64,000 bases of DNA from Candidatus Firestoneibacteriota bacterium (GTDB lineage: Bacteria; Oederibacteriota; D2-FULL-39-29): positions 1,136 through 65,135 of the forward strand of contig CAITEH010000012.1 of NCBI GenBank assembly GCA_903891415.1. Reading direction: 5' to 3'. Position 1 is the first letter of the stretch; every line of letters begins with the position of its first letter. Below, piece after piece: positions 39,399 through 52,278 of this stretch. Below the pieces are notes generated by a model. The model was not told the DNA's origin. It made no database searches and was given only the letters and a program-made list of their open reading frames with translations. The position numbers and the translations under genes were made by a program.

Positions 39399-41006
39399 TT
39401 ATCCCTGATTTCTGATCTCTTTTTCAAGGTAAATGGCACCGGTCGGGCAGGCCCGGGCGCATTCTTCAGAAACTTTTTCCTGCAGTTTATTAAATTTCCT
39501 GTTGAAAGGGAGCCCTATTTTAGTTTTGAAACCCCTGCCAATATAGGCCATGCTGTCAAATTCCCCGTGTTTTTCGCATATTTTCACGCAAATACCGCAC
39601 ATGATGCATTTCCCTGATTCATAAACAACCCCGGTCTTTTTAATATCCCTGGAGAAACCCCGTTTTTCGCCTTTTAAAGCGTCCGGCTCCGCGTTATACT
39701 CGATCGCGTATTTCATTAAAAGACAGGCAGCCGCTTTCCGGCACTCACACCCCAGGCATCTCAGGGCTTCTTCGATAACCTCGCCTGCAGTAAAAGGCAG
39801 CCTTTCCTCCCCCGGGTTCTCCGTTATGATTTTCATATCCACCATACTGTTCAGAAAACGTCCGAGCTCCGGAGCTCCCTTTAAGAATAGCTCCTGCTCT
39901 TTTTCGGAAAGTTTTCCCATCCGCGCGGAAAACGGTTTTTTTTCTATCCCGGGCTCCAGGCCGTTCAAATACCTGTTTATGGAGCCGGCCGCCCGCCTCC
40001 CCACTTCGGAGGCCCTGACCGCCAGAGTCGTTTTGGGCCCGGCAAATACTCCCTTGATACCGGCCGCGTAAGTTTCTTTCTCAAAAACCACACCGTTTGG
40101 GCCGGTACGCACGCCTTCTTTTTCCAGGCCTACCAGATCCTCCGGGTTGCTCCCCGCGGCCAGGAAGACCGCGTTAAATTCCCGTAAAAGGTCTTTCAGG
40201 AATATATCCCTGTGCAGTACTTTTTTTTGTTCGAACTTTACGCCCAGCCCGGCTATTACGGCTATTTCTTTGTTTAAAATTTCATCCGGCAGCCTGTCTT
40301 TACTGATAGCATACCTTAGCGTTCCCCCCGCCTTTTCATTTTTATCATAAACCACCACTTCGTGACCGTATGCGCGCAGGTAATAGGCCGCCGTAAGCCC
40401 CGCGGGCCCGGCCCCTATTATGGCGGCCTTCTTACCGGTCGCTTTTGCGGCCTCCGGGCTGAAAGGTTTTCCTGAATAAAGGTCAAAATCGGCGGCGTAT
40501 CTTTTAAGATGGCAAATGGCGACCGGCGCGTCACCGTCCTTCCTTCTGCACACTTTCTCGCATACCTCCGGGCAAATTCTCCCGAGGACCGCCGGTAAAG
40601 CCACCTTCTGCTTAATGGTCCTGAGCGCGGCTCTATTGTCGCCTCTTTTAAGTTCGGTGATAAATTTTGGAATATCTATATGCGCAGGGCAGCCGGATTG
40701 GCAGGGCCCCAGGCAATCCCCCGTATGGTCCGACAGTAATAATTCCAGAGCCCGTTTTCTGGCCTGCCTTACCCTCGCGGTTTCTGTATGAATACTCATG
40801 CCGGCTTCCGCTTTGGCCGCGCAAGCCGGAACAAGCGCCGGTTTACCTTCCACTTCCACCACACAGATAAAACAGGTGGTCAAAGCCCCGATTTCCTTAA
40901 GGTAGCACATTGTGGGAATAGTAATACCGTTCCCGGCCGCGGCTTCCACCAGATTCTCGCCTTCCTTGAAATTATAGGTACTGCCGTTAATTTTTATTTC
41001 AGGCAT
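39399..41006 (-). CDS. GltD-like NAD(P)H/FAD oxidoreductase with N-terminal 2Fe-2S ferredoxin domain and C-terminal 4Fe-4S domain
   Basis: 535 aa. The N-terminus IKINGSTYNFKEGENLVEAA..GITIPTMCYL is a NuoG/HydA-type fer2 domain. Also present are the GltD alpha-helical FeS region (DHTGDCLGPCQSGCP, RICPEVCEKVCRR), the dinucleotide motif AAIIGAGPAGLTAAYYL, and C-terminal CIMCGICVKIC ... CARACPTGAI. Confidence 0.85.
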   Translation of the reverse strand: MPEIKINGSTYNFKEGENLVEAAAGNGITIPTMCYLKEIGALTTCFICVVEVEGKPALVPACAAKAEAGMSIHTETARVRQARKRALELLLSDHTGDCLGPCQSGCPAHIDIPKFITELKRGDNRAALRTIKQKVALPAVLGRICPEVCEKVCRRKDGDAPVAICHLKRYAADFDLYSGKPFSPEAAKATGKKAAIIGAGPAGLTAAYYLRAYGHEVVVYDKNEKAGGTLRYAISKDRLPDEILNKEIAVIAGLGVKFEQKKVLHRDIFLKDLLREFNAVFLAAGSNPEDLVGLEKEGVRTGPNGVVFEKETYAAGIKGVFAGPKTTLAVRASEVGRRAAGSINRYLNGLEPGIEKKPFSARMGKLSEKEQELFLKGAPELGRFLNSMVDMKIITENPGEERLPFTAGEVIEEALRCLGCECRKAAACLLMKYAIEYNAEPDALKGEKRGFSRDIKKTGVVYESGKCIMCGICVKICEKHGEFDSMAYIGRGFKTKIGLPFNRKFNKLQEKVSEECARACPTGAIYLEKEIRNQG

Positions 41007-41013
41007 ATTCTGT

Positions 41014-43377
41014 TCACTCCAGATCTACCGCTTCCGATTTGCATACGGCCCTGCAGGAATCGCATTTAATACATTTTCCCTGGTTTATTTCATGCTTTTT
41101 AAAGGGCTGTGCCTGTATGGCTTCTGACGGGCAGGCCTGCGCGCAAAGCGTGCAGCCGATGCATTTGTCGTTTACGGTATATTTGATCAGGTCCTTGCAT
41201 TTTTTAGCCGGGCACTTCCCTTTTACATGCGCCGCATATTCTTCTCTAAAATATTTAAGAGTGGTCAACACCGGATTGGGGGCCGTTTTTCCCAGGCCGC
41301 ACAAGCTCCCCGCCTTTATATCATTTGCCAGCGTTTCCAGCCGGGCAATATCTTCAAGCTGGCCGCGGCCCGCGCAGAACCTGCCGAGAAGCTCCAGCAT
41401 CCTTTTTGTGCCTATACGGCAGAAGGTGCACTTGCCGCAGGATTGGTCCTGGGTGAACTCAAGAAAAAATCTCGCGAAATCTACCATGCAGTCGGAATCA
41501 TCCAGCACGACCAGCCCGCCCGAGCCCATAATGGCGCCGGTCTCTGTTATCTTTTCAAAATCTATAGGCAGATCAGCCAGACTCTCGGGGATACAGCCCC
41601 CGGAAGGGCCGCCTATCTGGACCGCTTTGAATTTTCTCCCTTTTTTAACCCCGCCCCCGATACCTTCGACCACTTCTCTTATAGTTATCCCCATGGGCAC
41701 TTCTATCAGGCCGCCTCTTAGAACATTACCCGCGAGCGCGAAAACTTTGGTGCCCTTGCTCCTGGCGGTCCCTATCCCGGAATAATTTTCGGCGCCGTTT
41801 TTTATTATCCAGGGCACGCAGGCATAGGTCTCCACGTTGTTAATATTTGTCGGGCAGGCAAACAGGCCGCTTACCGCGGGGTACGGCGGACGGAAGGCCG
41901 GCATGCCGCGCCTGCCTTCTATAGAAGCTATAAGAGCAGTTTCCTCCCCGCAGATAAAAGCGCCGGCTCCGCGGAAAATATGAAGTTTCAAATTGAAACC
42001 TGTCCCCAGAATATTATTTCCCAGGAGCCCCTCTTTCTCGCACTCCGCCAGCGCGTGCCTGATGTTTTCCAGAGCCAGCGGGTATTCTTCCCTGATATAT
42101 AAATAACCCTCGTCAATGCCGATGGCAAAAGCGGCAAGAGCAATACCTTCAAGCACCCTGTACGGATAGGACTCCAATAACATCCTGTCCATAAAAGCGC
42201 CGGGATCACCCTCGTCCCCGTTGCAAATTATGTATTTCTTCCCGGCCCGGGAGGCCCTTGTGAGCTCCCATTTTAACCCGGTAGGAAAACCGGCTCCGCC
42301 CCTGCCCCTGAGCCCGGACTTCTTGACTTCAGAAATTATTTCCGCCGGCTGCAGGGACTTAAGCGCCTTTTCCAGCGCGGTAAAGCCGCCTTTTTCCTTA
42401 TATTCCTGAAGATCAAGCGGGTCCACTTCCCCGTAATTCTCAAGGACCAGCCTTTTTTGGGGGCCCAGAAAAGCGCAAGCCGGGCCTTTATCCAGAGCCA
42501 GAGGATCTATCTGCTCCGGCCCGTCGTAATACTCAAAGGTAAAAAAGTCATAACCTTTTTTAATTGTGTTCAAGAATTTCTTAACGGGCCCGGCCGGCAG
42601 GAGATGTTTATCACAGATAAGTTTTACATCCTCCGGTTTAACATCTGCATAAAACGTGGAAACGCCTTCCGGAGACACAACTTCGGTAAAAGGATTACTG
42701 TGGCACATACCCACGCAGCCGACCTTCTTGGTGACCGCTTCCAGCGAATTCCGGTCTATATATTCGTCAAAAGCATCCTTCACATCCTTGCTGCCGCTCG
42801 CGACACAGCAGGAACCGAGCCCGATCTTAATGACTGTTTTACCTTTGGCTTCCGGGACGGATGTTTCCGGAAGGCCTTTTTGCAGATTGCCGGAGACGGT
42901 ATTCAGAAAAAGGCCGATCATATCGGGTATGGACTGGGCGGTCACATGCCCGTAGGTAAGCCCGTCTATCTTGACCACGGGCGCCAGCGTGCAGCACCCG
43001 AAGCAGGCGGCCTTCTCCACCGTAAAGAGCCCCGTAACGTCGGTGTCTTTACCTTCTTCTATCTTCAAATAACGCCTGACCGCATCCGTTATCAACGGCG
43101 CGCCTTTAACATGGCAGGCCGTTCCGTGACAGACCGCAAGGACATGTTTACCCACCGGCGTATGCCGGAACTGGGTGTAAAAAGTGGAAACGCCGGTTAT
43201 CTGCGCTCTGGTAATTTCGGTAAGCTCGCAGACCCGCTGCAGCGCTTCCTCCGGCAGGTAGCGGAAATGTTTCTGCAACTCCTGTAAAATAGGAATTACC
43301 AGCCTGCTCTCTGTGCCCAGCGAGGCCACGATGGTTTTAACTACTTCAAGGTCTATGTGCTCTTTGTTTTCGTTCAC
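41014..43377 (-). CDS. Fused NuoE-like + NuoF-like NADH-binding FMN/FeS flavoprotein (HydC-HydB/BfuC-BfuB type)
   Basis: 787 aa. The GTG start overlaps the upstream stop (GTGA). It has a NuoE thioredoxin-like 2Fe-2S (VCHGTACHVKGA...CFGCCTLAP), a second 2Fe-2S-like insert (GSCCVASG...VGCVGMCH), a NuoF core (RGRGGAGFPTGLKW, SCGKCTFCRIG, SLCGLGKTAPNP) and a C-terminal 2x[4Fe-4S] (CIGCTLCAQACP, CIKCDSCRAVC). Confidence 0.9.
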   Translation of the reverse strand: MNENKEHIDLEVVKTIVASLGTESRLVIPILQELQKHFRYLPEEALQRVCELTEITRAQITGVSTFYTQFRHTPVGKHVLAVCHGTACHVKGAPLITDAVRRYLKIEEGKDTDVTGLFTVEKAACFGCCTLAPVVKIDGLTYGHVTAQSIPDMIGLFLNTVSGNLQKGLPETSVPEAKGKTVIKIGLGSCCVASGSKDVKDAFDEYIDRNSLEAVTKKVGCVGMCHSNPFTEVVSPEGVSTFYADVKPEDVKLICDKHLLPAGPVKKFLNTIKKGYDFFTFEYYDGPEQIDPLALDKGPACAFLGPQKRLVLENYGEVDPLDLQEYKEKGGFTALEKALKSLQPAEIISEVKKSGLRGRGGAGFPTGLKWELTRASRAGKKYIICNGDEGDPGAFMDRMLLESYPYRVLEGIALAAFAIGIDEGYLYIREEYPLALENIRHALAECEKEGLLGNNILGTGFNLKLHIFRGAGAFICGEETALIASIEGRRGMPAFRPPYPAVSGLFACPTNINNVETYACVPWIIKNGAENYSGIGTARSKGTKVFALAGNVLRGGLIEVPMGITIREVVEGIGGGVKKGRKFKAVQIGGPSGGCIPESLADLPIDFEKITETGAIMGSGGLVVLDDSDCMVDFARFFLEFTQDQSCGKCTFCRIGTKRMLELLGRFCAGRGQLEDIARLETLANDIKAGSLCGLGKTAPNPVLTTLKYFREEYAAHVKGKCPAKKCKDLIKYTVNDKCIGCTLCAQACPSEAIQAQPFKKHEINQGKCIKCDSCRAVCKSEAVDLE

Positions 43378-45077
43378 TTATTTCCTATGCAAACAAGATT
43401 CTTTTCGCTTCTAATAAATATTCTGCCGCCCGCAAAGGCAGGCGAGGCCGAACATTTCTCGCCCATATCCATGGTTTTGATCAGTTTGCCGCCGTAGCTT
43501 ACCGTATAAACCTTGCCCTGCTGGGAAGGTATATAGACGGTGCCGTTTACCAGGGAAGGGGAAGCCCAGAAATCATCTTCCAGCGCAAGCTTCCAGAGGG
43601 TTTTTCCTGTTTTAATATCCTGCCCGGTTATCAAAGAGTTCATCGCGACCACAAGAATTTTCCCGTCGGTGACGGGCGTGTTTATGGCCTGATTTTCTTC
43701 CTGCATGGACCAGGCTATTTTTGTTTTAGTTACCTCTCCAAAACCCCCGGGAGTGATAGCGGTAACGGTCGAGACCGAGCCGACGTCAATAACGACAACA
43801 ACGCCGCCGCCATAGACCGCGGAAGTGGAGATCTCTCCGGCAAGGCATTTTACCCGCCAGAGCTCTTTCCCCGTTTCCGGGTCATAGGCTATCACCTGCT
43901 CCGGCCCCGTGGTTATTATTTCATTTTTCCCGTTATGTTCAATTATTATGGGCGTGCCCCAGGAAGCGCCGTCCGGCCTTTTCGTCTCCCAGACGGTCTT
44001 GCCTGATTTTTTGTCCAGCGCGGCTATTTTTGAAAGCCCTTCTCCGCCCAGGTCCAGCTGCACTATGATATTTTTTTTCCAGAGTACCGGGGAAGAAGAA
44101 AGGCCGTAAGTATTTTCCGTTTTCCCGAAATATTTGACCCAGAGCTGTTTTCCTTTCAGGTCAAAGCAAACCAGGTGATCCGTGGCAAAGAGCGCAAAAA
44201 CATGTTCCCCGTCGGTCACCGGTGTGGGCGCGGCATAACCCGCCCCGCCGGCGTCTTCCGACATTATTTCAATATCTTCCAGCTTGACCGGAACCATTAC
44301 GCTGGAAGCCCATTTACAGCTGCCTTTTACCGCATCATAGCAGAGCACCTTCAGGACTTTGCCTTCACTGCCGGTAAGGAAAAGGTTATCCTTATAAACC
44401 ACCGGGGAACTGTAGGATCTCGCGGACAGGGCCGTTTTCCAGAGAATATTTTTTCCTGTTTTCAGGTCCCATTCCCCCGCGTAATTCCCTTCCTTCACCA
44501 GCCCGCTGCCGGCCGGGCCGCGAAAACTATTCCAGCTCGAAGACAGGTCGATTTCTTTTTCGTTCCCGGCAGCCGCCGCCTCAAAGCCCATTTTTCTGGC
44601 GCCCAGGACCGCGAACACCCCGAGCAGGCCCAGGAGGACGAGTCCCGTTACCGCCGCAGCGGCCAGAGAGTTATTAATTCCCGCGCCCCCGGCCCTATAA
44701 ACTGTTTCACTGCCCTTTTTTACCTCAGGGATCCTTCCGGTCAGGGCCCGTTCAAAACGCAGAGCGAGCAGAGCCAGCAGGAGAAAGACAATAAATATAT
44801 TTTTACCTTGCTCCAGAATAACGCTCTTTCTGAAAAAAGCGGCCCTTTCCTTCAGGTCTTTTTCCCTGAACTCCCGGAGCAGATTCTCGTGATCCGGATA
44901 TTTATCAAGTTTGGCCTTGAGGGCTTCCAGCGCCGGGGAATCCTTAATATTGCCCTGCTGGCCCGTTAGATAATAGCCGGCCAGGAAAAGCGCGGCAATA
45001 AGAGCAATAGCCGCGGACGCAACGGCCGCCTGCTTTAACGCGAGGCGGAATATGTTATTTAACGTTTCTCTGTCCAT
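43374..45077 (-). CDS. Membrane-anchored (about 3 TM) PQQ-like beta-propeller repeat protein
   Basis: 567 aa. The N-terminal ~170 aa carries three hydrophobic helices. These are followed by repeated xxALDxxTGKxLW-type blades (VLCYDAVKGSCKW, LVCFDLKGKQLW, IAALDKKSGKTVW, VIAYDPETGKELW, ITGQDIKTGKTLW). Confidence 0.85.
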   Translation of the reverse strand: MDRETLNNIFRLALKQAAVASAAIALIAALFLAGYYLTGQQGNIKDSPALEALKAKLDKYPDHENLLREFREKDLKERAAFFRKSVILEQGKNIFIVFLLLALLALRFERALTGRIPEVKKGSETVYRAGGAGINNSLAAAAVTGLVLLGLLGVFAVLGARKMGFEAAAAGNEKEIDLSSSWNSFRGPAGSGLVKEGNYAGEWDLKTGKNILWKTALSARSYSSPVVYKDNLFLTGSEGKVLKVLCYDAVKGSCKWASSVMVPVKLEDIEIMSEDAGGAGYAAPTPVTDGEHVFALFATDHLVCFDLKGKQLWVKYFGKTENTYGLSSSPVLWKKNIIVQLDLGGEGLSKIAALDKKSGKTVWETKRPDGASWGTPIIIEHNGKNEIITTGPEQVIAYDPETGKELWRVKCLAGEISTSAVYGGGVVVVIDVGSVSTVTAITPGGFGEVTKTKIAWSMQEENQAINTPVTDGKILVVAMNSLITGQDIKTGKTLWKLALEDDFWASPSLVNGTVYIPSQQGKVYTVSYGGKLIKTMDMGEKCSASPAFAGGRIFIRSEKNLVCIGNK

Positions 45078-46350
45078 CTCTTTTCAACTGCTCCTGTCTT
45101 TCCACGGGGCAATCCATAAAACACCTGCCGCAGGAAAGGCACCTGGCGCCGTCCGGTTCATAGATCTCCCGTTTAGGTTTTCTTGAAGCATACAACAACT
45201 GCAGGCCCAGCACAAACATGATCCAGAGCCCCAGCAGGGAACCGCCTTTTTTGAACTTATTCTTGAGCGCCTCCGCCCTGGTAAAAAGAAGCTCCGGGCT
45301 CTCCCCGCTGTCCAGATAAACTTTCACCTCGTCAGAAATACCGCCGGGGCCGGGACCCTCTTCATAATAGGCGTGTATTTCCACGGCCAGCCCGACTTCT
45401 TTATTATAGGCAGAACAGAAAGCGCCGGTGTAGTTCCCGAGTATGACTCCCGCGAGCAGGCCGGAAATAAATAAAATTGCAGGGAGAGCACCTTTCTTGA
45501 TATTTCTTTTTTCCGGCTTTTCAGGTTTATTGATGGCGCCAAAAGGACAGGAGTCCTCGCAGAGCCGGCAGACAATGCATTTATCCGGAGTCACGGTCAC
45601 TTTATTCCTGCTCACCAGGGAAAGAGGTTTTAACAGCGCGCCATAGGGACAGATAAAACGGCAATACGGGCGCCCGATAAAAAGCGAGAGTACCAGAAAT
45701 ATTCCTCCGGTCACAAGCATAGAGAAAGGCCCGGTAAGCCGGAAGAACGGAACAAAAGGATCGTATTTACAGATAAGAAAAGTTGAGCCGGTCACCGCGA
45801 AAAGTACGGCCAGGCCGAGATAGATATAGGCGAACAGGGAAAGAGAACGGTCAAGCCAGCGCGGTATTTTCAGCTCTTTTATCAAAAGCAGGTCCTGCAG
45901 CGCGCCATGCGGGCAGGCGCCGCCGCAATAGGCCCGGCCTGCAAAAAGCGAAGCCGCCAGGGGAATAATAAAAATCAGTACCGCCGTAAACGGCATATAA
46001 TAGCCGGGTGAGGAAAGCGCCAGGGCGGCATCCTGTACCGCGCCTATGGGACAGATACAGCCCTCCTTATAAAATCCAAAATAAAGAAGAGAGAACAAGG
46101 AGAGGAGCATGATAATATTTCTGGATCTTTTTTTGAGAGAAGCCCAGGCAGAAAGTAAAATAACCGCAAGCAGAATAAAAATATCCAGATATGCCAGAAT
46201 TTCGGCCCGGGCGGGAGGCCTCTGCATGACCGGCAGGGAGTAATTGGACTCAAACTCCGGAGGCGGGAATTTATATTCCGCAAAAACCGCCCCGAGGGCC
46301 AGACAGAGAAATATTGAGGCAATAAAAAGTCTTTTATAATTTATTTTCAT
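45055..46350 (-). CDS. NapH/NosH/MauN-like polytopic 4Fe-4S membrane protein
   Basis: 431 aa with AAGGAAGG RBS and multiple TM helices. It has two CX3CP motifs (YCGGACPHGAL, YCRFICPYGAL) and two ferredoxin motifs (CIVCRLCEDSCP, CLSCGRCFMDCP). Confidence 0.85.
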   Translation of the reverse strand: MKINYKRLFIASIFLCLALGAVFAEYKFPPPEFESNYSLPVMQRPPARAEILAYLDIFILLAVILLSAWASLKKRSRNIIMLLSLFSLLYFGFYKEGCICPIGAVQDAALALSSPGYYMPFTAVLIFIIPLAASLFAGRAYCGGACPHGALQDLLLIKELKIPRWLDRSLSLFAYIYLGLAVLFAVTGSTFLICKYDPFVPFFRLTGPFSMLVTGGIFLVLSLFIGRPYCRFICPYGALLKPLSLVSRNKVTVTPDKCIVCRLCEDSCPFGAINKPEKPEKRNIKKGALPAILFISGLLAGVILGNYTGAFCSAYNKEVGLAVEIHAYYEEGPGPGGISDEVKVYLDSGESPELLFTRAEALKNKFKKGGSLLGLWIMFVLGLQLLYASRKPKREIYEPDGARCLSCGRCFMDCPVERQEQLKRDGQRNVK

Positions 46351-46909
46351 TTCCTTCCTTGGTTATATAGGGGCTGGCGGCCGGGATCCGGACAAAAGCA
46401 TTTGCCGGGCAGGCACTGGCAATAAGGCATTCATTACAGTTTTTGCACCGGTCGTGCCGGACCTGCAGCTGGAGAGAGCCGTTCCCGAAAGCGGTACAGC
46501 CGCTCACGCACTTCCCGCAGCCGACACAGAGTTTTTCCTTGATAGTGTATTCATAGTAGGGCTCTTCAACGAATTTTCTTTTTATCGCCCCGGTCGGGCA
46601 AAGTTGATTCTCCCCCCCGCTGTTCAGGTCGCGCTGGCCGGCCTGGAAAAACCCGAAACACAAATTACAATAACCGCAGATGGAGAAGTTATGCACGCAT
46701 TTGACCGCGGAGATCCGAAGGACGCATTCCGTCGCGCACCTGCCGCATTGCGTGCATTTTGCCGGGTCTATCTGCCAGACGGCGGAACTTTTTTTTGAAC
46801 GCGCGAGCGCGGCGCCGCCCGCCGCCCCGAGCACCGCCAGAAAAATACCCCGGCCGGTATTTTTCAGGAATTCCAAACGCGATATTTTTTTTGTTTTATT
46901 TTCTTCCAT
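46334..46909 (-). CDS. NapG/MauM-like periplasmic 4x[4Fe-4S] ferredoxin with Tat-like signal
   Basis: I prefer the ATG at 46909 (MEENKTKKISRLEFLKNTGRGIFLAVLGAAGGAALA). There are four Cys clusters: CTQCGRCATEC, CGYCNLC..CP, CVGCGKCVSGC and CKNCNECLIASACP. The 39-aa extension in the track ORF overlaps the upstream small gene. Confidence 0.8.
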   Translation of the reverse strand: MEENKTKKISRLEFLKNTGRGIFLAVLGAAGGAALARSKKSSAVWQIDPAKCTQCGRCATECVLRISAVKCVHNFSICGYCNLCFGFFQAGQRDLNSGGENQLCPTGAIKRKFVEEPYYEYTIKEKLCVGCGKCVSGCTAFGNGSLQLQVRHDRCKNCNECLIASACPANAFVRIPAASPYITKEGNENKL

Positions 46910-47138
46910 GGCCTGTTTCCCTGACCGTCCATTTTGAATTAAAAGACCCTTTTGCGTCCAGCGAGCAATTAGTTGCGTCTTTGCACGCGGCGCACCGGCT
47001 GTAAGCCCGGCAAGCCGTTCCGCCAAAGATATTTTTGGCCGTCAGGATACCGGTAACTCCGCCAAGCAGAGCCAGCCCCGCGTAGCGGAGAGACTTTTCA
47101 AGCAGTTCCCGCCGTGAATATTTATTTTTTAAATTCAT
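46896..47138 (-). CDS. 80-aa Tat-signal peptide-bearing 4-Cys protein (unknown family)
   Basis: An ATG at 47138, preceded by GGGGG, gives MNLKNKYSRRELLEKSLRYAGLALLGGVTGILTA (canonical SRRxLL twin-arginine motif). The mature part is ~45 aa: KNIFGGTACRAYSRCAACKDATNCSLDAKGSFNSKWTVRETGHGRK. It overlaps the next start by 14 nt. Confidence 0.5.
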   Translation of the reverse strand: MNLKNKYSRRELLEKSLRYAGLALLGGVTGILTAKNIFGGTACRAYSRCAACKDATNCSLDAKGSFNSKWTVRETGHGRK

Positions 47139-47172: not shown

Positions 47173-48423
47173 TTACTTAGCCCCGCTTTCAGCAATATCC
47201 AGGCAGAGCATTTCGGTCATGCTCCTGATAACCAGTTTTCCGCCGGAAACAGCCAGCGGAGCCCACATCTGCTTGCCTGTTAACGCGGCAAATTTCGAAA
47301 TTTCCTTATATCCTGAAGCGGTAGGTTCCAGAAGAAATAAAGTGCCGGTATCCCCGAGAACATACAGCAGGCCGTCTATTATCAGGCAGGGACCAAGCCC
47401 GACTTTAACTTTGGAGCTCTTCCAGAGGACCTTGCCGTTCAGGTCCAGGCAGTATATTTCACCTGAGGCCCCGTAAATATTGTCCTTATACAATATCGGT
47501 GTTTGGACTTTCGAACCAAAATCTTTTTCCGTTAGCCTGGTAATTTCCTCGGTAACGACCTCATTCCCGTTCTTTTTCAGCCCCAGGATAAGGCTTCCGG
47601 CGCCATAACCACCCGTAAAGAATATTCTATCCTTGCCGATAACAAGGGGCGCGGGAATATTCGCCGTTTTAACGGTCCACCCCGGGTGGGTCCAGCGAAG
47701 TTTACCGTCAGCGGCGGCAACCCCGAAGGCGCCTTTTTTGGAACAACCGATATAGAATTTTTCCTTTTCAAAATCCATAACGGTTATCGAATTATGGGTC
47801 ATGCCCCAATTGCTTTCACACGGAGTTTCCCAGGCAGTTTTCCCTGAAGCAAGGTCAAAAGCCGCCATTAAGACCTTATCGCCCGCAACCAGAATGATAA
47901 CTTTGTCCCCGTCTATAAGGGGATTTTGGCCCGCGTACCAGCCGGGCACCTTACTGCCGTATTCCTTGACAAGGTTCTTCTGCCAGGCAAGTTTCCCGCT
48001 GTCTTTTTCCAGGCAGGAGACCAGGCAGTTAGTCCCCAGGGTCACCACATATTTGCCGTTAACAGCCGGCACCGTCCTGGAGTAATCATACTGAGAGGGT
48101 TTTATTTTTGAGGGGTAGCCGTAGGACCAGGCCTCTTTCCCGTCCTTCATATCGAGGCATTTTACCGTGTCTTCTTCTTTGTCGGTGTTATAGTCGAGAA
48201 TAAACAGTTTATCTTCAAACACCACCGGGGCGGCAAACCCGCCTCCGACTTTAACCCGCCAGAGTTCTTTGGGGCCTTCCGCGGGCCATTTCTTCAGCAG
48301 TTTTTTCCCGGTCGTAACCACCCCGTTCCTGTTTTCCCCCAGAAACTGCGAGAAATTGTCCGCCAGCACGGCGGAAACGGCCAGCAGCACGAAAAGCAGC
48401 AACTTTATTTTAGACATATACAT
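47173..48423 (-). CDS. Secreted PQQ-like beta-propeller repeat protein
   Basis: 416 aa with a Sec signal (KIKLLLFVLLAVSAVLA). Blades include VKCLDMKDGKEAW, VSCLEKDSGKLAW, MAAFDLASGKTAW and IYCLDLNGKVLW. It is a clear paralog of the 49767-51170 product. Confidence 0.85.
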   Translation of the reverse strand: MYMSKIKLLLFVLLAVSAVLADNFSQFLGENRNGVVTTGKKLLKKWPAEGPKELWRVKVGGGFAAPVVFEDKLFILDYNTDKEEDTVKCLDMKDGKEAWSYGYPSKIKPSQYDYSRTVPAVNGKYVVTLGTNCLVSCLEKDSGKLAWQKNLVKEYGSKVPGWYAGQNPLIDGDKVIILVAGDKVLMAAFDLASGKTAWETPCESNWGMTHNSITVMDFEKEKFYIGCSKKGAFGVAAADGKLRWTHPGWTVKTANIPAPLVIGKDRIFFTGGYGAGSLILGLKKNGNEVVTEEITRLTEKDFGSKVQTPILYKDNIYGASGEIYCLDLNGKVLWKSSKVKVGLGPCLIIDGLLYVLGDTGTLFLLEPTASGYKEISKFAALTGKQMWAPLAVSGGKLVIRSMTEMLCLDIAESGAK

Positions 48424-48741: not shown

Positions 48742-49767
48742 TTATTGTTTTTGTGAAAATATTCTCACGGTACTTTCAACCGGGTCCAAAGCGTAGATCC
48801 TGTTCTTTGAGTCCACCGCCAGGGGAATACCCGCGTTTTTTTCATTAAAAGTACCGGGACCCGCCACAACTCCGAGAAATTTCCCGGTCCTGTCGTATTT
48901 TTTGATCCTTAACACGCCCTTCTCAGCAGTAACAAAATTCCCCTCTCTATCTATGACGAAATTAACGGGATTACAGCAGCCTATAAATTCATCAATATTT
49001 ACCCCGTGTTTTCCCCAGGCGCCGAGAAAAACCCCTTCAGAGGAATAGTTCTCCAGCTGCAGCCGTCCGGTATCAGCCACCCAGAGTTCCCCGCTGCCGT
49101 CAAGCTCAATATCCATATGCGGGCTGGGAATGATAAAACCCCTGCCGGCACCTTCGGCTTTCCCTGCTATCTTTCCCAGGAACCTGCCCTGCAGGTCAAA
49201 CTTTGAGATCCTTCTATTCCCGGCATCTGCCACAAATATATATTTATCGCTGGCTTTTACTGCCGTGATAAAACTGAATTCGCCGTCACCCCGGCCTTTT
49301 TTTCCGAAAGTAAGGATCTCTTTTGAAATTATATTTACCCTGTCCCTGCCGGCCAGAAGCAGGGCGCCTGAAGCACCGAAAGCGGCCGCGCCCGCATTTT
49401 CCAGCTTGACCGGGAGGCCCGTTATCTTTCCTGTGCCTTTATCGTTACAGGCCAGCAGGCCTTCAGTTGACACGACAAAGATCAACCCTTCTTTTTTATC
49501 CACCGCCAGCCCAAAAGGTTCTTTAAGCCCCGTCTTAAACTTTGCAGTTTCACTGTAGCTAAGCAGTTTGGGGTCATAATTCTTAAGCGCCGCCAGATCA
49601 TATTTAAAGTTATCCGGCAGGGTGTTTTTTCCCGTCCCCGCGTTACCCGCTTTGGGCAGTGCGGACCTGAAACTAAAAAGGTATTCCGCGAGAAAATACC
49701 CTGCAAAACTCCCGAGGGCCACAATAAATATCGCGGTAACTATTTTTGAACGCTCTCTGCCGGCCAT
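48742..49767 (-). CDS. N-terminally anchored NHL-repeat beta-propeller protein
   Basis: 341 aa with one TM helix (IVTAIFIVALGSFAGYFLAEYLF). It has NHL-type blades (ASDKYIFVADAGNRRISKFDLQGRFLGKI; GELWVADTGRLQLENYSSEGVFLGAWG; NFVTAEKGVLRIKKYDRTGKFLGVV). Its ATG shares one base with the upstream stop (TAATG). Confidence 0.85.
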   Translation of the reverse strand: MAGRERSKIVTAIFIVALGSFAGYFLAEYLFSFRSALPKAGNAGTGKNTLPDNFKYDLAALKNYDPKLLSYSETAKFKTGLKEPFGLAVDKKEGLIFVVSTEGLLACNDKGTGKITGLPVKLENAGAAAFGASGALLLAGRDRVNIISKEILTFGKKGRGDGEFSFITAVKASDKYIFVADAGNRRISKFDLQGRFLGKIAGKAEGAGRGFIIPSPHMDIELDGSGELWVADTGRLQLENYSSEGVFLGAWGKHGVNIDEFIGCCNPVNFVIDREGNFVTAEKGVLRIKKYDRTGKFLGVVAGPGTFNEKNAGIPLAVDSKNRIYALDPVESTVRIFSQKQ

Positions 49768-51170
49768 TATTGTTTCACCTTCACGCAGACCAGTTCCGTA
49801 AGGTCTTTAAGCAGTAATTTCCCGTCCGCCAGGGCCATAGGCGCCCACGCCTCGTGCCCCTGAAATACTTTTGCTTTGCCCGTTTCGTTGTACCCGGAAT
49901 TTTCCGCTTCCGCAAAATACAGATACCCGCTGGTATCATTTAAGGCCAGCAGCATGCCGTCGGCAATAAGGAAGGGCCCCAGGCCGAATTTTTTTTCCGG
50001 GCCGCTCTTCCATAACTGTTTCCCGGACGTATCGATACAGGCCAGCTGCCCGTCCTGAATTATTCCGTAAAAATTGCCCTGGTAATAGACCGGGGTGTGC
50101 TGTTGAGAAGAAAATACGGAAGCTTTCACCCTGAATAATTCCTTGAGCCCGTACTTGTCCGCTTCCTTTGTAACCTGCACATACCTGGCTCCGGAATCAT
50201 AGCCGCCGGTAAAAAGGAGCTTATCCTTATCCACGATAACAGGAGCCGGCACATTCGCTATATTTATCTTCCAGGTTTCGTCCAGCCAGAGAATTTCGCC
50301 TGTCTTTGCCGAGACCGAAACAACTCCCTTCGTGGCGCAATAGATATACTGGCGTTCTTTGGGAAAATCCAGTACGGAAACGGAAGAATGCGTCATTTTG
50401 TAATCCCCGGGGTTCTTCGCGGACCAGCGCGCCCGGCCGGTCGCCAGGTCAAGCGCCGTCATAAGTACTTCCTTGCCGCCGGGAGCCAGTATTACCAGGT
50501 CCTCCTCTATCAGGGGACACTGCCCGGCATACCATTCCGGGACTTTTGTGCCGTATTCTTTGACAAGGTCTTTCTTCCAAACCAGCTCTCCCGAATCAGC
50601 CTTCAAACAGGTCACCTGGCACATAGGGCCGAGGGCTACCAGATATTTGTCATTTACCGCGGGAACGGTCCTGGACATGCCGTGATTTCTTTTTATTTTC
50701 TGAGGGTAATTAAACTTCCAGATCTCTTCCCCGTTTTTAAAGGAAAGGCACCTGATGGAATCTTCTTTATTTTCCTGGTCATAATCTATAAGGTAAACCC
50801 TGCCCCTGTTAATTACAGCGCCGGCATAACCTTCGCCTGTCTTTACGCTCCAGAGCACAGGCAGCCCTGCTGCAGGTATTTTTTTTATCAGTCCTGTTTC
50901 ACTGCTAAGCCCGTCCCTGCCGGGCCCTCGAAACTGCGGCCAGCTGCCTTTTTCGGCGGAAGGCGCGCCTTTTCCTCCGGTCAACCCTCCTGAAACAGCT
51001 TTCTTACCGGTTTGTTCGGGAAGTTTAAGCCCTTCCACCTTCTCTTCATACGGGTTCCGTATTTCCAGCCCCCCGGGTGCCGGAGTCCTCAGCCACCGGA
51101 CAATAAAAAAAGCGCCGCAAAGGATTATTAAAAAAGAAATTATCAGTCCCGGATATTTAGTGTTTTTCAT
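49767..51170 (-). CDS. N-terminally anchored PQQ-like beta-propeller repeat protein
   Basis: I prefer the ATG at 51170 (MKNTKYPGLIISFLIILCGAFFIV) over the track TTG at 51194. It is a paralog of 47173-48423, for example YAGQCPLIEEDLVILAPGGKEVLMTALDLATGRARW versus YAGQNPLIDGDKVIILVAGDKVLMAAFDLASGKTAW. Confidence 0.85.
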   Translation of the reverse strand: MKNTKYPGLIISFLIILCGAFFIVRWLRTPAPGGLEIRNPYEEKVEGLKLPEQTGKKAVSGGLTGGKGAPSAEKGSWPQFRGPGRDGLSSETGLIKKIPAAGLPVLWSVKTGEGYAGAVINRGRVYLIDYDQENKEDSIRCLSFKNGEEIWKFNYPQKIKRNHGMSRTVPAVNDKYLVALGPMCQVTCLKADSGELVWKKDLVKEYGTKVPEWYAGQCPLIEEDLVILAPGGKEVLMTALDLATGRARWSAKNPGDYKMTHSSVSVLDFPKERQYIYCATKGVVSVSAKTGEILWLDETWKINIANVPAPVIVDKDKLLFTGGYDSGARYVQVTKEADKYGLKELFRVKASVFSSQQHTPVYYQGNFYGIIQDGQLACIDTSGKQLWKSGPEKKFGLGPFLIADGMLLALNDTSGYLYFAEAENSGYNETGKAKVFQGHEAWAPMALADGKLLLKDLTELVCVKVKQ

Positions 51171-52278
51171 TGCCGCCTGCTTCACTGCCGCCAAAACAAT
51201 AGATCAACCCGCTGCTGTTGCCTGCCACCATTTTTCCGTCTGAGACCGCGGTGGAACCCGAAACAGGACTGCCCGTGTCAAATTCAAATATCTTTTTACC
51301 CGTATCCAGGGCCGCGCCGTAAAGTTTACCGTCCTCGCTTCCAAAAAAAACGTTCTCACCCGCGATAACAGGGGAAGATTCTATTTTACCGCCCGCGGTA
51401 AAGGCCCATTTAAGCCGGCCGGTTACAGGTTCCAGGCACCGGAGAAAATTCCCGTTGGTGCCGAAAACCACGGCGCTGTCATTGACCGCCGGGGAGGAAA
51501 AACATTGTTCATTGTTTTCGTCATAATATTCCCAGAGTATTTTTCTTGAAACGATATCCGCGCAGAAGAATTTTCCCGTAAGAGAGGACACATAGACCCT
51601 GTCCTTATACACCGCCGGGGAGGCGGCAATATTGCTTTCCAGCGGTATCAGGAATTTTTCCAGGCCGGTTGCCAGGTCCACGAACCTGAAGTTACCGTCG
51701 CAGCCCGCCACTACGGCATTATTCCCGCATAAGGCAGGTGACCCGTGAATGGGCGAGTCCAGGGTTAATTTCCATACCGGCCGGCCATCATTCGCGTCAA
51801 GCGCGTAAAGAGTACCGTCGTAACCGCCAAAAATTATTTTGTTGCCGCTGCAGGCCGGAGAAGAAATGAGCTGTTTTTCGGATTCAAACTCCCAGAGTTT
51901 CTTTCCGGTTCCCGCTTCCAGCGCGTAGAACATTCCGAGGTCATCGCCAAAAAAAACTTTTCCGCCGGTTACCAGAGCGGAAGACCTGATCTCCCCTTTC
52001 ACCGGAAACGTCCAGAGTAATTTTCCCGTGCCGGGGTCGAGACAGATGAATTTATCCGTACAGCCGATATAGGCACCCGTCTTCGTAAGCGCGGGCGTGG
52101 AATAGACGGTTTTTTTCGCGTCATAAGTCCATTTAATTTTCAGATCTTTCGGGAGCTTTGAGGCCGCAACACCTGTCGCAGCAGGATCACCACGGAATTG
52201 GAGCCATTCGGCGGATAAACCGGCAGTTAAAATCACTAAAAGTAGCGCTGTATTTGCAATTCTACTTCTTATCTTCAT
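51157..52278 (-). CDS. Secreted BamB-like PQQ beta-propeller repeat protein
   Basis: 373 aa with a signal peptide and regular blades (FICLDPGTGKLLW, FYALEAGTGKKLW, LYALDANDGRPVW, FLRCLEPVTGRLKW, LYGAALDTGKKIF). Confidence 0.88.
   Translation of the reverse strand: MKIRSRIANTALLLVILTAGLSAEWLQFRGDPAATGVAASKLPKDLKIKWTYDAKKTVYSTPALTKTGAYIGCTDKFICLDPGTGKLLWTFPVKGEIRSSALVTGGKVFFGDDLGMFYALEAGTGKKLWEFESEKQLISSPACSGNKIIFGGYDGTLYALDANDGRPVWKLTLDSPIHGSPALCGNNAVVAGCDGNFRFVDLATGLEKFLIPLESNIAASPAVYKDRVYVSSLTGKFFCADIVSRKILWEYYDENNEQCFSSPAVNDSAVVFGTNGNFLRCLEPVTGRLKWAFTAGGKIESSPVIAGENVFFGSEDGKLYGAALDTGKKIFEFDTGSPVSGSTAVSDGKMVAGNSSGLIYCFGGSEAGGNEKH

Follow-up and report, generated by a model that had tools for sequence, protein, structure and literature searches.

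The small gene and its reading frame

The stretch of DNA analysed here, referred to as the window, comprises 64,000 nucleotides (nt) of a Candidatus Firestoneibacteriota bacterium (contig CAITEH010000012.1) and carries on the minus strand a small gene (46896..47138; start ATG 47138, stop TAA 46896-46898) with a translated product of 80 amino acids, MNLKNKYSRRELLEKSLRYAGLALLGGVTGILTAKNIFGGTACRAYSRCAACKDATNCSLDAKGSFNSKWTVRETGHGRK. The product combines a leader of the twin-arginine translocation (Tat) type with a domain of the cysteine spacing C-x5-C-x2-C-x5-C, and it is a candidate iron-sulfur (Fe-S) subunit of the envelope electron-transfer system that its neighbours most likely encode. Directly upstream lies a gene for a BamB/PQQ_2-type propeller (47173..48423, minus strand), the stop of which is separated from the start of the small gene by 34 nt. 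Downstream lies a gene for a ferredoxin of 191 amino acids (46334..46909, minus strand), the ATG of which (46909) falls within the small gene; the resulting overlap of 14 nt is the same in the sister genome. Translation and neighbours agree with an earlier note on this DNA, which had placed a small Tat-signal frame from ATG 47138 between a propeller and a NapG-like ferredoxin.

Within the translated product, the twin-arginine-type motif S8-R9-R10-E-L-L spans amino acids 8 to 13 (47100..47117, minus strand) and is followed by an uncharged h-region, possibly a membrane anchor, at amino acids 19 to 34 (YAGLALLGGVTGILTA; 47037..47084, minus strand). The 46 amino acids that remain after the leader hold cysteines 43, 49, 52 and 58 and one tryptophan (W70), in line with the mature part of about 45 residues, four cysteines and a single tryptophan that had been described before. 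The spacing given at that time, C-x6-C-x2-C-x5-C, has to be corrected: translation and alignment place the motif at C43-x5-C49-x2-C52-x5-C58 (46965..47012, minus strand), with all four cysteines invariant among the close relatives.

The 80-codon frame is a true, conserved gene under purifying selection. Orthologues of the ferredoxin were found at 64 to 84% identity in 10 genomes of the same order, and in all 10 a small frame of 69 to 81 amino acids, 38 to 52% identical to that of the window (tblastn), lay directly upstream of the ferredoxin gene; the conserved syntenic frame that the earlier note had proposed to look for in other genomes is thus present. In an alignment of nine full-length Firestonebacteria copies, the invariant residues included R18, C43, C49, C52, D54, C58, S59, L60 and W70. 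Between this genome and its sister, the ratio of nonsynonymous to synonymous differences (pN/pS) was 0.38 in the small frame and 1.06 and 1.17 in the other two frames, both of which contain stops, and the substitutions in the small frame were concentrated at third positions. Sixteen orthologous pairs from several phyla were compared for their ratio of nonsynonymous to synonymous substitution rates (dN/dS), and 6 of these were dropped for saturated dS; the ratio was 0.12 to 0.45 in 9 of the 10 unsaturated pairs and 0.74 in the remaining one.

It could be argued that the small frame is open by chance and that the true gene is a TTG-started extension of the ferredoxin to 230 amino acids (46334..47026), as called once, by JGI/IMG (P0185). 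The exact 80-amino-acid product, however, occurs on 19 contigs in the records of NCBI, JGI/IMG, ENA and Logan, and the concern that gene callers easily miss the small frame proved largely wrong. Moreover, the ferredoxin frame of the relatives is closed just 5' of its ATG, or 30 to 200 nt of non-coding sequence lie between the two genes, and the small frame is kept across phyla, whereas the alternative frames show pN/pS values of about 1.1 and stops. Codon-level conservation favours the small frame over the 230-amino-acid reading, which is not conserved in relatives, shows no purifying selection and meets stops; we reject it and give it practically no chance of being correct.

The gene cluster and the occurrence of the small gene

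The small gene is one of ten cluster genes in the window, all on the minus strand. The ferredoxin carries a Tat-like leader and four Cys-cluster motifs and is NapG-like by architecture; it is followed by a NapH/NosR-type membrane polyferredoxin (45055..46350; PF12801 Fer4_5, 65 bits, above cut-off), a membrane-anchored PQQ-like propeller (43374..45077), a NuoE-NuoF fusion (41014..43377) and a GltD-like flavoprotein (39399..41006). Beyond the BamB/PQQ_2-type propeller, the upstream part of the cluster consists of an NHL propeller with a CCNP motif (48742..49767) and two more propeller genes (49767..51194 and 51157..52278). NapH and NosR models of NCBIfam matched the protein of 45055..46350 below their cut-offs only, and no NapG model matched either the ferredoxin or the membrane protein of the window. 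A Pfam and NCBIfam scan of the ten genes returned propellers, Fe-S proteins and flavoproteins only, with no nitrate reductase, N2O reductase, amine dehydrogenase or formate dehydrogenase among them. In architecture and order, the genes for the ferredoxin and the membrane polyferredoxin match NapG/NapH, NosG/NosH and MauM/MauN, in which a Tat-exported four-cluster ferredoxin is paired with a membrane polyferredoxin, but the cluster of the window differs from those systems in having propellers and a NuoEF/GltD-like module and none of their terminal reductases or dehydrogenases. We know of no small four-cysteine Tat protein in the NapGH, NosGH or MauMN systems.

A scan with the ferredoxin alignment, taking one genome per species, gave 405 places, the 80 best of which were surveyed for synteny. 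These 80 loci came from Firestonebacteria, Planctomycetota (Phycisphaerae/Sedimentisphaerales, Pirellulales, Brocadiia and others), Verrucomicrobiota, Kiritimatiellae/Victivallales, Bacteroidales and Desulfobacterota, and in nearly all of them the order was the same: PQQ-like propeller, NHL propeller, small gene, ferredoxin, NapH-like protein, membrane-anchored PQQ-like propeller, NuoE-NuoF and GltD-like protein. The cluster of eight to nine genes, found in at least six phyla, is most likely an envelope electron-transfer operon. Neither the Pfam nor the NCBIfam library describes the cluster, and a literature search on the cluster or the motif yielded the paper on RseC (see below) and none on the cluster or the small protein.

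Several features of the partner genes were observed in passing. In most phyla the NHL gene is the immediate upstream neighbour of the small gene; the propeller of 47173..48423 is a paralogue of that of 49767..51194 and is inserted between the NHL and small genes only in this Firestonebacteria family. Of the 17 invariant cysteines of the ferredoxin, 16 lie in the four cluster motifs and one (C71) in an invariant SAVKC. In the NHL propeller an adjacent cysteine pair is invariant, within FIGCCNP here, GFCGCCNP in the phyla of the Planctomycetes-Verrucomicrobia-Chlamydiae group and F[ST]ACCNP in Desulfobacterota, and this CCNP pair is likely to be a redox site.

Presence of the small gene was called with a hidden Markov model (HMM) of the small protein run on six-frame open reading frames of the loci, combined with inspection, and 77 loci were assessable. 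A separate small gene was found in 58 of these and an in-frame fusion to the ferredoxin in 6; the other 13, among them 9 from Desulfobacterota, had no small gene. Where separate, the gene adjoins the ferredoxin gene on its upstream side, except in Verrucomicrobiota, where it sits upstream of the NHL gene. Because there are Desulfobacterota clusters without it, the small subunit is accessory and not universal.

The ferredoxin fusions were found in Pirellulales/Sedimentisphaerales (L058, L064, L066 and L101), Kiritimatiellae (L039) and Victivallis (L063, an assembly of V. vadensis), a genus of which strains are in culture. Each has a single leader, CX5CX2CX5C or a close variant of it, and then a ferredoxin domain with VWQIDP and Fer4 matches in Pfam. 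A fusion of a second type, P0070 (363 amino acids), joins the small module to an NHL propeller that is 39% identical to that of the window (E 1e-39). In both types the small module stands in for the partner's own N-terminal leader or anchor. The existence of fusions to the ferredoxin and to the NHL propeller argues that the small protein shares a compartment and a complex with both partners. The NHL protein has an RR leader of its own in 8 of the 10 assessable loci without the small gene versus 8 of the 56 with it, counts that are not phylogenetically independent. The HMM of the small protein also matched ferredoxin N-termini, covering leader and first Cys motif (E 1e-4 to 1e-7), and since the two leaders are alike, the small gene may possibly have arisen by partial duplication of the 5' end of the ferredoxin gene.

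These fusions also bear on another suggestion of the earlier note, that the product is a precursor peptide. It would then be a ribosomally made peptide or a cross-linked, cofactor-bearing subunit of the kind known from methylamine dehydrogenase and quinohemoprotein amine dehydrogenase, whose small subunits sit in beta-propeller enzymes. A small cysteine-rich product beside propellers and a MauM/MauN-like ferredoxin pair would suit such a role, as would the one tryptophan conserved in Firestonebacteria. In-frame fusion to a ferredoxin or an NHL propeller, however, does not fit a processed peptide, and the tryptophan, in an alignment of 33 diverse family members, was conserved within Firestonebacteria only and not outside. 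Furthermore, genes of the radical-SAM, protease, ABC-exporter and MauG-like kinds, or any other of maturase type, are absent from the cluster genes of the window that are shared by the syntenic loci. A precursor peptide is therefore unsupported, and we regard it as highly improbable.

Family, cysteine motif and leader

A search of 1.84 billion representative proteins with a profile of the small protein matched 2734 clusters at E ≤ 1e-3 and 1004 at E ≤ 1e-10, mostly 70 to 110 amino acids in length. Family members, taken as proteins of 62 to 125 amino acids with an N-terminal twin-arginine-type leader and a C-terminal Cys motif, have no model in Pfam or NCBIfam; every named match to the profile was called hypothetical protein by its source, and none carried a Pfam domain. 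A word-indexed search with the single protein of the window returned one copy only (96% identical), and the family was reached through ferredoxin synteny. The MAFFT alignment was limited to six ferredoxin-only rows; with more of them, small proteins were misaligned onto the Cys motifs of the ferredoxin.

Three of the cysteines, C49, C52 and C58 (CX2CX5C), were invariant in the 33 diverse members. The fourth lay five residues upstream of CX2CX5C in 148 of 150 representatives, and in divergent lineages (Brocadiia, Bacteroidales and some Planctomycetaceae) it was found at x4 to x7 or downstream of the motif.

This arrangement has a close precedent in RseC/MucC (PF04246), in which the spacing CX5CX2CX5C is identical and, likewise, the last three cysteines are conserved and the first is variable. 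In Escherichia coli RseC the motif is N-terminal, its last three cysteines are the conserved ones, and an O2-sensitive [4Fe-4S] cluster can be reconstituted in the domain on its own (PMC11729352). RseC also resembles the small protein in being a small membrane-associated partner of a polyferredoxin-based electron-transfer complex, although this complex is of the Rnf/Rsx type for RseC, which belongs to the SoxR-reducing Rsx system of E. coli, and would be of the NapG/NapH type for the small protein. The topologies differ: RseC has its Cys domain at the N-terminus, in the cytoplasm, ahead of two transmembrane helices, whereas that of the small protein is C-terminal to the leader and presumably periplasmic, with one N-terminal helix (amino acids 9 to 38) before it and nothing after it. 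A search of 61 genomes of the phylum turned up no RseC gene.

A second precedent is the [4Fe-4S] loop of endonuclease III and MutY, Cys-X6-Cys-X2-Cys-X5-Cys (PMC11138216). Like the motif of the small protein, this loop places four cysteines for one [4Fe-4S] cluster within about 17 residues; its spacing, the one that had first been ascribed to the small protein, differs by one residue, the first gap being x6 there and x5 here. The loop lies within a cytoplasmic DNA glycosylase fold and has neither a leader nor electron-transfer partners.

Other short proteins with twin-arginine leaders offer a looser comparison. The high-potential iron-sulfur protein (HiPIP) is a small four-cysteine [4Fe-4S] protein exported by Tat, with a cysteine spacing unlike that found here, and PF01355 (HiPIP) matched neither the protein of the window nor the family members scanned. 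The proteins of TIGR02811 (formate dehydrogenase region TAT target) are similarly short and have such leaders; that model did not match the window protein and gave a weak match in 2 of the 33 family members (E about 2e-4).

The leader is of the twin-arginine type throughout most of the family. Among the 150 best representatives, the twin-arginine position was RR in 141, RK in 5 and KR in 1, and R9 was at least 90% conserved in the 33-member alignment. A second conserved arginine follows nine residues after this position, and the leader continues with a moderately hydrophobic, uncharged stretch (family median, 16 amino acids; mean Kyte-Doolittle value, 1.8) and a basic c-region, the net charge between h-region and Cys motif being about +2.6. 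A textbook twin-arginine leader, as the earlier note had it, is thus an apt description of SRRELL in this genome and of the family at large, but RR is not kept in the nearest relatives (SRKDII, SRKELL, TRKELL, TKKELL and NRKDIL). The same genome encodes TatC (165 bits) and TatA (74 bits). From the leader and its conservation across the family, we infer that the small protein is exported by Tat.

The curated Tat-signal model TIGR01409 found nothing above its cut-off in the whole genome (86.7% complete), despite the presence of TatA and TatC, and at E < 0.1 it matched 4 of the 33 family members; a Tat-motif scan of all open reading frames of the genome proved too noisy and was discarded. The products of this cluster may be among very few Tat substrates of the genome. 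The protein of the window has a possible cleavage site at the end of the h-region, after the alanine of L-T-A-K. An AlphaFold2 (AF2) model of the window protein, built with 33 sequences, gave a helix at amino acids 9 to 38 with a per-residue confidence score (pLDDT) above 90; that of a natural small-ferredoxin fusion had a mean pLDDT of 50 and was unusable.

The leader could also serve a partner. The earlier note had considered a signal-bearing escort for one of the signal-less partners. In such a case the RR or RK leader of the small protein would carry a preassembled complex of small protein and ferredoxin through Tat, a function that could add to a redox role. In this Firestonebacteria family (family f1; loci L004 to L013), the ferredoxin leader is without the second arginine (SRLEFL, SRMEFL or SRLDFL), beside a small protein with RR (this genome) or RK, and the 14-nt gene overlap here and in the sister genome, the natural fusions with one leader serving both parts and the match of the small-protein profile to ferredoxin leaders (E 1e-4 to 1e-7) are consistent with an escort. 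In the sister family and all other sampled phyla, however, the ferredoxin leader is canonical (TRRQFL, SRREFL and similar), and in those other phyla it stands beside an RR small protein, so that escort cannot be the general function of the family; most small proteins of family f1 have RK only, and the invariant cysteines would be left unexplained. What stands of the suggestion is a possible escort in the family of this genome; in most phyla there is no need for it, since the ferredoxin brings an RR leader of its own and the NHL protein either an anchor or an RR leader. We consider it quite unlikely as an account of the small protein.

Proposed role of the small protein

At odds a little better than even (a probability of about 0.55), we propose that the small protein is a miniature Fe-S subunit, exported by Tat, that links the ferredoxin to the NHL propeller, a reading drawn from motif, leader, fusions and the comparison with RseC. 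An Fe-S cofactor is suggested because the neighbours and the fusion partner are Fe-S proteins, the motif is RseC-like and the leader is of the Tat type. The four cysteines would bind an Fe-S cluster, most likely [4Fe-4S], that is loaded in the cytoplasm; the folded protein would then be exported by Tat and would remain at the outer face of the membrane, tethered by a leader that is not cleaved or docked to its partners. In this position it would add one redox centre between the clusters of the ferredoxin and the NHL propeller, the CCNP pair of which would be the obvious electron acceptor. The complete chain would run from NAD(P)H through the NuoEF/GltD-like module, the NapH-like protein, the ferredoxin and the small protein to the CCNP pair of the NHL propeller. 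Among the three functions considered in the earlier note, that of a mini FeS or metal protein is best supported, by the Tat-type leader, the ferredoxin and NHL fusions and the RseC-like motif; the cofactor itself is one that we infer.

Several observations weigh against this proposal. The 13 loci without the small gene make the protein an accessory, not an obligatory link of the chain. With regard to the motif, four cysteines in an exported domain of 46 amino acids could also bind zinc or form two disulfides, and AF2 gave the Cys domain no confident fold (pLDDT about 50). PF04246 was unmatched at E ≤ 10 in 10 members, and hhalign against E. coli RseC put the motifs in register over 21 columns at a probability of 2%. 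With regard to export, RR is found within Firestonebacteria in this genome only, the relatives having RK or, in one genome, KK; neither TIGR01409 nor PF10518 matches the leader of the window protein; and a -3/-1 signal-peptidase site is present in 63 of 146 members only. Because this site is poorly conserved, the leader may remain in place as a membrane anchor.

With PF04246 unmatched, an hhalign probability this low and a different architecture, homology to RseC is unsupported, and we read the resemblance as one of functional analogy and not of family membership.

Some of the same observations would equally suit a structural or anchoring subunit without a redox role, in which the helix tethers the ferredoxin/NHL module to the NapH-like protein and the cysteines bind zinc or form two disulfides, doing no more than stabilise a small knot. 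AF2 is confident on the long N-terminal helix only, the cleavage site is not conserved, the module takes the place of the partner's N-terminal anchor in both kinds of fusion, and the gene is dispensable in 13 loci. There was also a weak match of the window protein to a zinc ribbon, that of PaaD (PF23451), at 21.3 bits versus a cut-off of 27. None of the 32 other members scanned had this match (1 of 33 in all), and we dismiss it as chance; the single CxxC knuckle is unlike zinc ribbons, whereas the spacing of the motif matches two known [4Fe-4S] sites. A disulfide-stabilised periplasmic peptide, furthermore, would normally use Sec, yet RR is present in 141 of 150 representatives. Such a structural role thus appears unlikely, if conceivable.

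A more specific form of the Fe-S proposal would have the cluster of the mini-protein pass electrons directly to the invariant Cys-Cys site of the NHL propeller and, in Firestonebacteria, would additionally make the protein the Tat carrier for a ferredoxin with a decayed leader. We put this forward tentatively, as an improbable extension. If direct donation to the NHL propeller were true, hundreds of anaerobic species would possess a periplasmic thiol-based reductase of a new class, driven by NAD(P)H and wired through Fe-S centres.

A function is rarely assigned to proteins of so small a size, and this gene marks an order-conserved cluster in at least six phyla of mostly anaerobic and mostly uncultured bacteria. 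Should the four cysteines hold an Fe-S cluster, the protein would be an exported redox module of minimal size, joined in the course of evolution to one or the other of two partners, and the fusions would pinpoint which proteins of the system are in contact. The 46-residue domain would then also be an easily expressed and mutated handle on the biochemistry of a pathway from NAD(P)H to the envelope, and the RseC-type CX5CX2CX5C site would have a second, unrelated setting.

Two minor observations concern single loci or members. Locus L052, on a contig labelled as uncultured Bifidobacteriaceae, carries a cluster of the Verrucomicrobia type with 61% ferredoxin identity and a small gene with RR, and this label is probably a binning error. 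In two members from metagenomes (P0163 and P0165), the Cys domain is followed by a long C-terminal stretch of tandem repeats of the GKMPAPQAL type.

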